A stretch of 64,000 bases of DNA, from assembly GCF_003991155.1 (NCBI RefSeq), contig NZ_CP031293.1; one strand, 5' to 3'. Shown here piece after piece: positions 20,165-20,484 of this stretch (within the stretch, counting starts at the first letter, position 1; every line of letters begins with the position of its first letter). A program made the position numbers and the translations under genes. The notes under the pieces are model-generated. The model made no database searches. It had not been told where the DNA came from and was given only the letters and a program-made list of their open reading frames with translations. The stretch comes from Escherichia coli (GTDB taxonomy: Bacteria > Pseudomonadota > Gammaproteobacteria > Enterobacterales > Enterobacteriaceae).

Positions 20165-20484
20165 CCCGCCACCTTTTTCTAACCTTTTGCCGCTATGATG
20201 CCAATCGTTTCTTGAGGTTATTATTCAGTTTTGCAAATTAGAGCAAAGAAATTCTGGAATCTTCCTTCCTGATTTTGCATTGCATTCTGCCGTTGCGGCG
20301 ATTTAGTGCTATTTTCGAGCACATTACACACGGAGGTAAAAAAATCGACGCCGTCCAGCTCGCGGCTAATGCGCTAGGCAAGGAGTTATCGCTGGTGATG
20401 GTTTGATAACAGTTAATGAAAAGTTGTCATTTTTAACAACTGATATAGACTGCCGAATCACCTGCACATAATAACGATTCGATA

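Follow-up and report, generated by a model that had tools for sequence, protein, structure and literature searches.

The genes yncJ and ydcR are separated by 320 bp in the 64,000-nucleotide stretch of Escherichia coli DNA analyzed here (the window, to which coordinates refer unless another locus is named). According to the ORF list, the gap extends from 20165 to 20484 and is bordered by two intact genes: on the left yncJ (19934 to 20164, minus strand), which encodes a 76-aa protein of the DUF2554/YncJ family, and on the right ydcR (20485 to 21891, plus strand), which encodes a 468-aa GntR/MocR-type PLP-dependent regulator. Both assignments agree with the annotation of NZ_CP029747.1 (strain 2016C-3878), which over 50 kb has 3 nt that are not those of the window (blastn), and yncJ gives a 100% tblastn self-match. 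The same annotation identifies an IS150 transposase gene beside hokB/trg (1821 to 3190, minus strand), an IS200/IS605 tnpA pseudogene together with insQ (TnpB family) between ydcL and ydcO (14243 to 15965), and an IS621 transposase gene between yddE and nhoA (42831 to 43811, plus strand). The orphan toxin gene ortT is located at 27871 to 28044.

The corresponding gap in K-12 MG1655 is 938 bp long and harbors hicA (yncN; 177 bp) and hicB (ydcQ; 417 bp), which constitute a type II toxin-antitoxin (TA) operon. The gene order yncJ-hicA-hicB-ydcR that an earlier note on the window had given for K-12 is correct, and K-12 does not share the short gap. The note had also described about 320 bp between yncJ and ydcR without any ORF as large as hicA or hicB; the coordinates are exact, and the longest ORF in the gap is 43 aa, against 58 aa for HicA and 138 aa for HicB. 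The reported absence of hicAB is borne out as well: tblastn with K-12 HicA detected no HicA-like sequence in the whole 64-kb window (best E = 1.2), and all of hicA is missing in the alignment. The gap is, however, more than plain non-coding sequence. HicB as the tblastn query matches 20296 to 20403 (E = 5e-8), and in NZ_CP029747.1 PGAP annotates 20329 to 20406 (78 bp) as a partial HicB pseudogene, "missing N-terminus".

The left part of the gap, 20165 to 20340, is the retained divergent upstream region between yncJ and hicA. It is 176 bp long, ends in GGAGGTAAA and, in blastn and the alignments, matches K-12 with 97.7% identity (intergenic positions 4-176 in both). It is followed by the 3′ remnant of hicB (20341 to 20406, plus strand), which alignment and tblastn identify as the last 22 codons (KIDAVQLAANALGKELSLVMV region) with the TGA stop (66 bp). 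This remnant is non-functional. The original 78-bp hicB-ydcR spacer (20407 to 20484, plus strand), present in all alleles, completes the gap, and the hicB codons and the spacer together form a second blastn block with 93.8% identity (window intergenic 176-320, K-12 intergenic 794-938). A sigma-70-like site within the spacer, TTGTCA-16-TAGACT at 20424 to 20451, is probably ydcR's own promoter. The 43-aa ORF (20275 to 20406, plus strand, TTG start) is chimeric and continues from upstream non-coding sequence into the hicB tail in the same frame. No Pfam family matches this ORF, which is a by-product of the deletion rather than a probable gene.

The gap was aligned with K-12 and four further structural variants from complete E. 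coli genomes (including strain 789, DS566, and 24AR0180), and it is colinear with K-12 on either side of a single internal deletion. The missing 618 bp begin 45 bp ahead of the hicA start and reach as far as hicB codon 116/117. In both the alignment and the blastn blocks the junction appears as a run of seven A residues (20338 to 20344), of which the left two to three derive from GGTAAA upstream of hicA and the right four to five from ACAAAAATC, hicB codons 116-118. The left edge of the deletion thus lies directly after GGAGGTAAA (20332-20340) and the right edge directly before AAAATCGAC within codons 116-118, and the alignment leaves at most 1 nt of microhomology at the breakpoints.

The left breakpoint corresponds in K-12 to a position within a perfect inverted repeat with 7-nt arms, GTAAACA-CTAA-TGTTTAC, and falls into its left arm. 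The deletion removes the right arm of this palindrome, all of hicA, and 116 of the 138 hicB codons, and the alignment shows that a -10-like element located downstream of the palindrome in K-12, TGATATACT, is gone as well. CRP-S sites are sites that need both CRP and Sxy. Such a site is carried by the upstream hicAB promoter P1, which is activated by Sxy (reviews). The operator hicO has been described as an inverted repeat at a second promoter, P2, whose transcript starts at the hicA ribosome-binding site (reviews). Considering these descriptions together with the sequence, the K-12 palindrome presumably represents the HicB operator hicO of P2, and the 618-bp loss would then cover the right arm of hicO and the P2 -10 in addition to hicA. 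The retained 176 bp would hold an intact yncJ promoter and the orphaned P1, with their exact positions inferred; yncJ is a member of the CpxR iModulon. Attempts to position a CRP-S site on TTTTGCAAATTAGCGCAAAG or a CpxR box close to GGTAAA by eye were discarded, as neither is a convincing match to the consensus.

Irrespective of the precise promoter positions, no TA function is left at the locus. The ORF for the toxin, a dsRBD-fold RNase of about 58 aa, is wholly deleted, and the 22 remaining hicB codons contain no Pfam domain. The palindrome, taken to be P2/hicO, is cut in its left arm. Compared with K-12, the window thus lacks toxin, antitoxin, and presumed operator at the same site between yncJ and ydcR. 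Because toxin and antitoxin disappeared together, or the toxin first, losing them was not lethal. No terminator-like site was found ahead of ydcR, either between the scar and ydcR in the window or in K-12. Any transcription from the orphaned P1 would therefore run straight into ydcR.

The presence of a hicB remnant bears directly on how the gap arose. The earlier note had proposed that hicAB is a strain-variable insertion and that the window represents the empty site. The shortness of the gap and the variable presence of hicAB among strains are compatible with a never-occupied target for a mobile insertion carried by K-12 and others, and TA modules frequently spread by horizontal transfer (review). 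Variability within E. coli is indeed observed. The notion of an insertion and an empty site, however, was already refuted by the hicB remnant: the gap retains the final 66 bp of hicB as well as the region upstream of hicA, in the right order and orientation. Moreover, the short direct repeats that were proposed as marks of an insertion boundary were not found around hicAB or at the breakpoints in K-12; neither flanking direct repeats nor a target-site duplication is present, and the junction microhomology does not exceed 1 nt. Other Escherichia species with hicAB or its remnants at the same site also speak against the empty site, which we consider highly improbable.

These outgroups were identified in a YncJ-based scan with one genome per bacterial species. 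Both hicA and hicB are located between yncJ and ydcR in four other Escherichia lineages, i.e., E. whittamii, Escherichia sp. E1V33 (in which hicA is frameshifted), and two further species-level lineages. The flanks in these four differ from the window by 9-11%, in a distance table that leaves out two outgroup loci with anchor motifs that could not be located. In E. albertii NBRC 107761 (L010, 3693-4000), the yncJ-ydcR gap is 308 bp and retains nt 7-61, 343-362, and 401-417 of hicB. This pattern, with three separate deletions, is a different one, and the E. albertii remnant is independent of that in the window. In two Citrobacter species, hicAB immediately precedes ydcR, and cytochrome bd oxidase genes separate hicA from yncJ. 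Genes for subunits I and II of this oxidase are seen between yncJ and hicAB/ydcR in Citrobacter spp. loci L016 (1312-3725) and L014 (1331-3744), and among the Citrobacter loci hicAB is present beside ydcR in L016 and L044 and absent in L011, L014, and L051.

Colinear residue from upstream of hicA and from the hicB 3′ end, hicAB in outgroups, the E. albertii remnant, and the lack of direct repeats together argue for loss by deletion from an occupied ancestor. The residue is colinear with hicB and has the same orientation and synteny, and intact hicAB occupies the site in close as well as outgroup relatives, as expected for a deletion remnant. The 320-bp gap is thus very probably a scar left by the deletion of hicAB, an operon ancestral to Escherichia at this position.

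To what extent this scar is shared was examined in 5,426 complete E. coli genomes. The locus is present in 5,416 of them, and ten gave no match at all. The exact junction of the window occurs in 64 genomes (1.2%), including O7:K1 CE10, as counted at a required coverage of at least 80% with an 86-nt query of unequal arms, the right one being too short to seed alone. We take CE10 to belong to phylogroup F. The isolates with this junction originate from humans, poultry, cattle, and wastewater. A collapse of hicAB out of the assembly, or another sequencing artefact, has nothing specific in its favor. That the same junction recurs in 64 independently assembled complete genomes from various hosts and countries argues against such an artefact, as does the sequence, which is unique and non-repetitive, and the chance that the gap arose in this way is next to nil. 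One further sequence, NZ_CP062203.1 (strain K_EC180), has a locus match that stops at query position 516 (window ~20215), which indicates a different, larger rearrangement at the yncJ-ydcR gap.

The remaining genomes fall into several allele classes. The 445-bp hicA segment is present in 4,256 of the 5,426 genomes. About 3,370 (62%) carry the full-length hicA region, which we equate with full-length hicAB, and full-length hicA is accordingly missing at the site in ~38%. A frameshifting 22-bp deletion in hicA accounts for 886 genomes (16%), a class defined as the 90-95% identity band, in which the listed examples cover 423 nt rather than 445 and bear the annotation of a frameshifted "mRNA interferase". 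In strain 789 (L005, 2186-2340), where the 22-bp deletion joins TCC to TGCGTAAAG, the toxin is frameshifted and hicB is intact, i.e., an orphan-antitoxin allele. With ~886 genomes, this allele is as common as the deletion of 445 bp, which removes hicA and the first 60 hicB codons and is found in ~1,028 genomes (19%). The latter number was obtained by subtracting 4,253 from the 5,281 genomes in which the middle of hicB is covered to at least 80%, and equals the number in the identity band of at least 99% (1,028). DS566, NC101, ST80, and UPEC strains are included in the 445-bp class. Presumably these strains, NC101 among them, belong to phylogroup B2. The loss of hicAB in phylogroup B2 has already been noted in a published survey (bioRxiv 10.1101/486399). 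A further-eroded form, the 24AR0180 type, was detected in ~69 genomes (1.3%).

The allele with the 445-bp deletion and that in the window have the same left breakpoint but differ in what is left of hicB. The former retains 78 hicB codons, in which a complete HTH_3 (helix-turn-helix) domain is still encoded (Pfam E = 5.5e-8), whereas the window lacks a further 173 bp and has no domain. In the DS566 copy of this remnant (L003, 2143-2379), the presumed operator palindrome is destroyed, an in-frame TAA is situated just upstream, and a GTA to GTG change gives a possible internal start. The 24AR0180 allele (L004, 2143-2205) has the 445-bp junction and a second deletion of 144 bp between AAGG repeats. 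On the left it is similar to the 445-bp allele, but the hicB tail and spacer that form its right flank are K-12-like, a combination suggestive of recombination within the locus.

All three deleted E. coli alleles have their left breakpoint directly after GGAGGTAAA in the alignment. In addition, derived SNPs are common to the window and the 445-bp allele, for example at 20242 and 20322 on the left and at several positions on the right, within the spacer and the tail of hicB. These two left-flank SNPs do not occur together in any of the 4,252 alleles in which the hicA region is still present; the best match has one of the two. Around the scar, between 19705 and 20552, the window differs from DS566 at only 4 positions in 848 bp, to be compared with 28 differing sites between the window and K-12 in the same interval. 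Outside this low-divergence tract, as delimited by the mismatch positions, the window and DS566 differ at 25 positions in the 1504 bp to its left and at 38 in the 1448 bp to its right. Taken together, the common left breakpoint, the derived SNPs, the 4 versus 28 differences in the tract, and the 24AR0180 allele, which builds on the 445-bp junction, favor a route in two steps. In the first step, a 445-bp deletion would have taken hicA and the first 60 hicB codons, producing the allele that still exists in ~19% of the complete genomes. A 173-bp deletion would then have followed in the lineage that includes the window strain and O7:K1 CE10. This is the most economical reading of the data and, with recombination possibly contributing to the history of the tract, we regard it as reasonably probable.

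One feature of this two-step route is awkward. The second deletion would have to begin at most 1 nt from the earlier junction, and no mechanism explains why its left end should fall there. Moreover, no 445-bp allele with the two private SNPs of the window (20203 and 20382) was found, leaving the route without a direct intermediate. The latter point fits a single step, in which an intact ancestor would have lost all 618 bp at once and separately from the 445-bp event, with the left end determined by a hotspot in GTAAACA-CTAA-TGTTTAC, the putative hicO. Palindromes can promote deletion endpoints, and the left breakpoint does fall inside the left arm of the perfect repeat present in K-12. Since the first deletion destroys the palindrome, a hotspot could account for two independent events, though not for a second event at the old junction. 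The derived flanking haplotype of both deleted alleles, however, is found in 0 of the 4,252 alleles bearing the hicA region, and the tract around the scar is nearly identical in the window and the 445-bp allele. The third allele, of the 24AR0180 type, demonstrably derives from the 445-bp junction, and the independent deletions in E. albertii use other breakpoints. A single step is on these grounds unlikely, though it deserves to be kept in mind.

The shared left breakpoint of the three deleted alleles and the ~0.85-kb tract, which is far more similar than its flanks, raise yet another possibility. Instead of passive decay, the hicAB-null allele may have moved between lineages by homologous recombination under selection, or the operator palindrome may be a true deletion hotspot. 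We consider this quite improbable. If the null allele was favored, the gain could lie in the loss of a costly toxin or in the placement of ydcR under the CRP-Sxy-dependent P1. As to the retained upstream region, the C to A change at 20242 is located in an inverted repeat, TTTGC-N8-GCAAA (TTAGCGCAAAG to TTAGAGCAAAG). All deleted alleles have this change, but neither K-12 nor any of the outgroups examined, E. albertii among them, does, and the position may be part of a regulatory site within the hicAB promoter region that was orphaned.

Collectively, what separates yncJ and ydcR is a hicAB deletion scar that contains a hicB pseudogene. RefSeq annotation already records it, and it is in keeping with the known decay of TA loci; the common left breakpoint and the low-divergence tract around the scar are its only mildly unusual points. 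As for other chromosomal TA loci in E. coli, an ancestral TA module at a fixed site has repeatedly been inactivated by frameshifts and deletions, with the toxin lost first or together with the antitoxin. An example of such decay is ccdO157 (Mine et al. 2009, as cited in a review). In contrast to ccd, hicAB belongs to a different TA family, and the allele series and counts presented here are specific to hicAB. For annotation, the yncJ-ydcR gap should be treated as a hicB pseudogene or deletion scar rather than as untouched intergenic sequence or a target for insertion. The locus provides a clean example of the repeated, independent decay of a chromosomal TA locus, and the lack of full-length hicA at the site in so large a share of the complete E. 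coli genomes supports the dispensability of such loci. It also calls for caution in studies that take the hicAB operon of K-12 as typical of the species.
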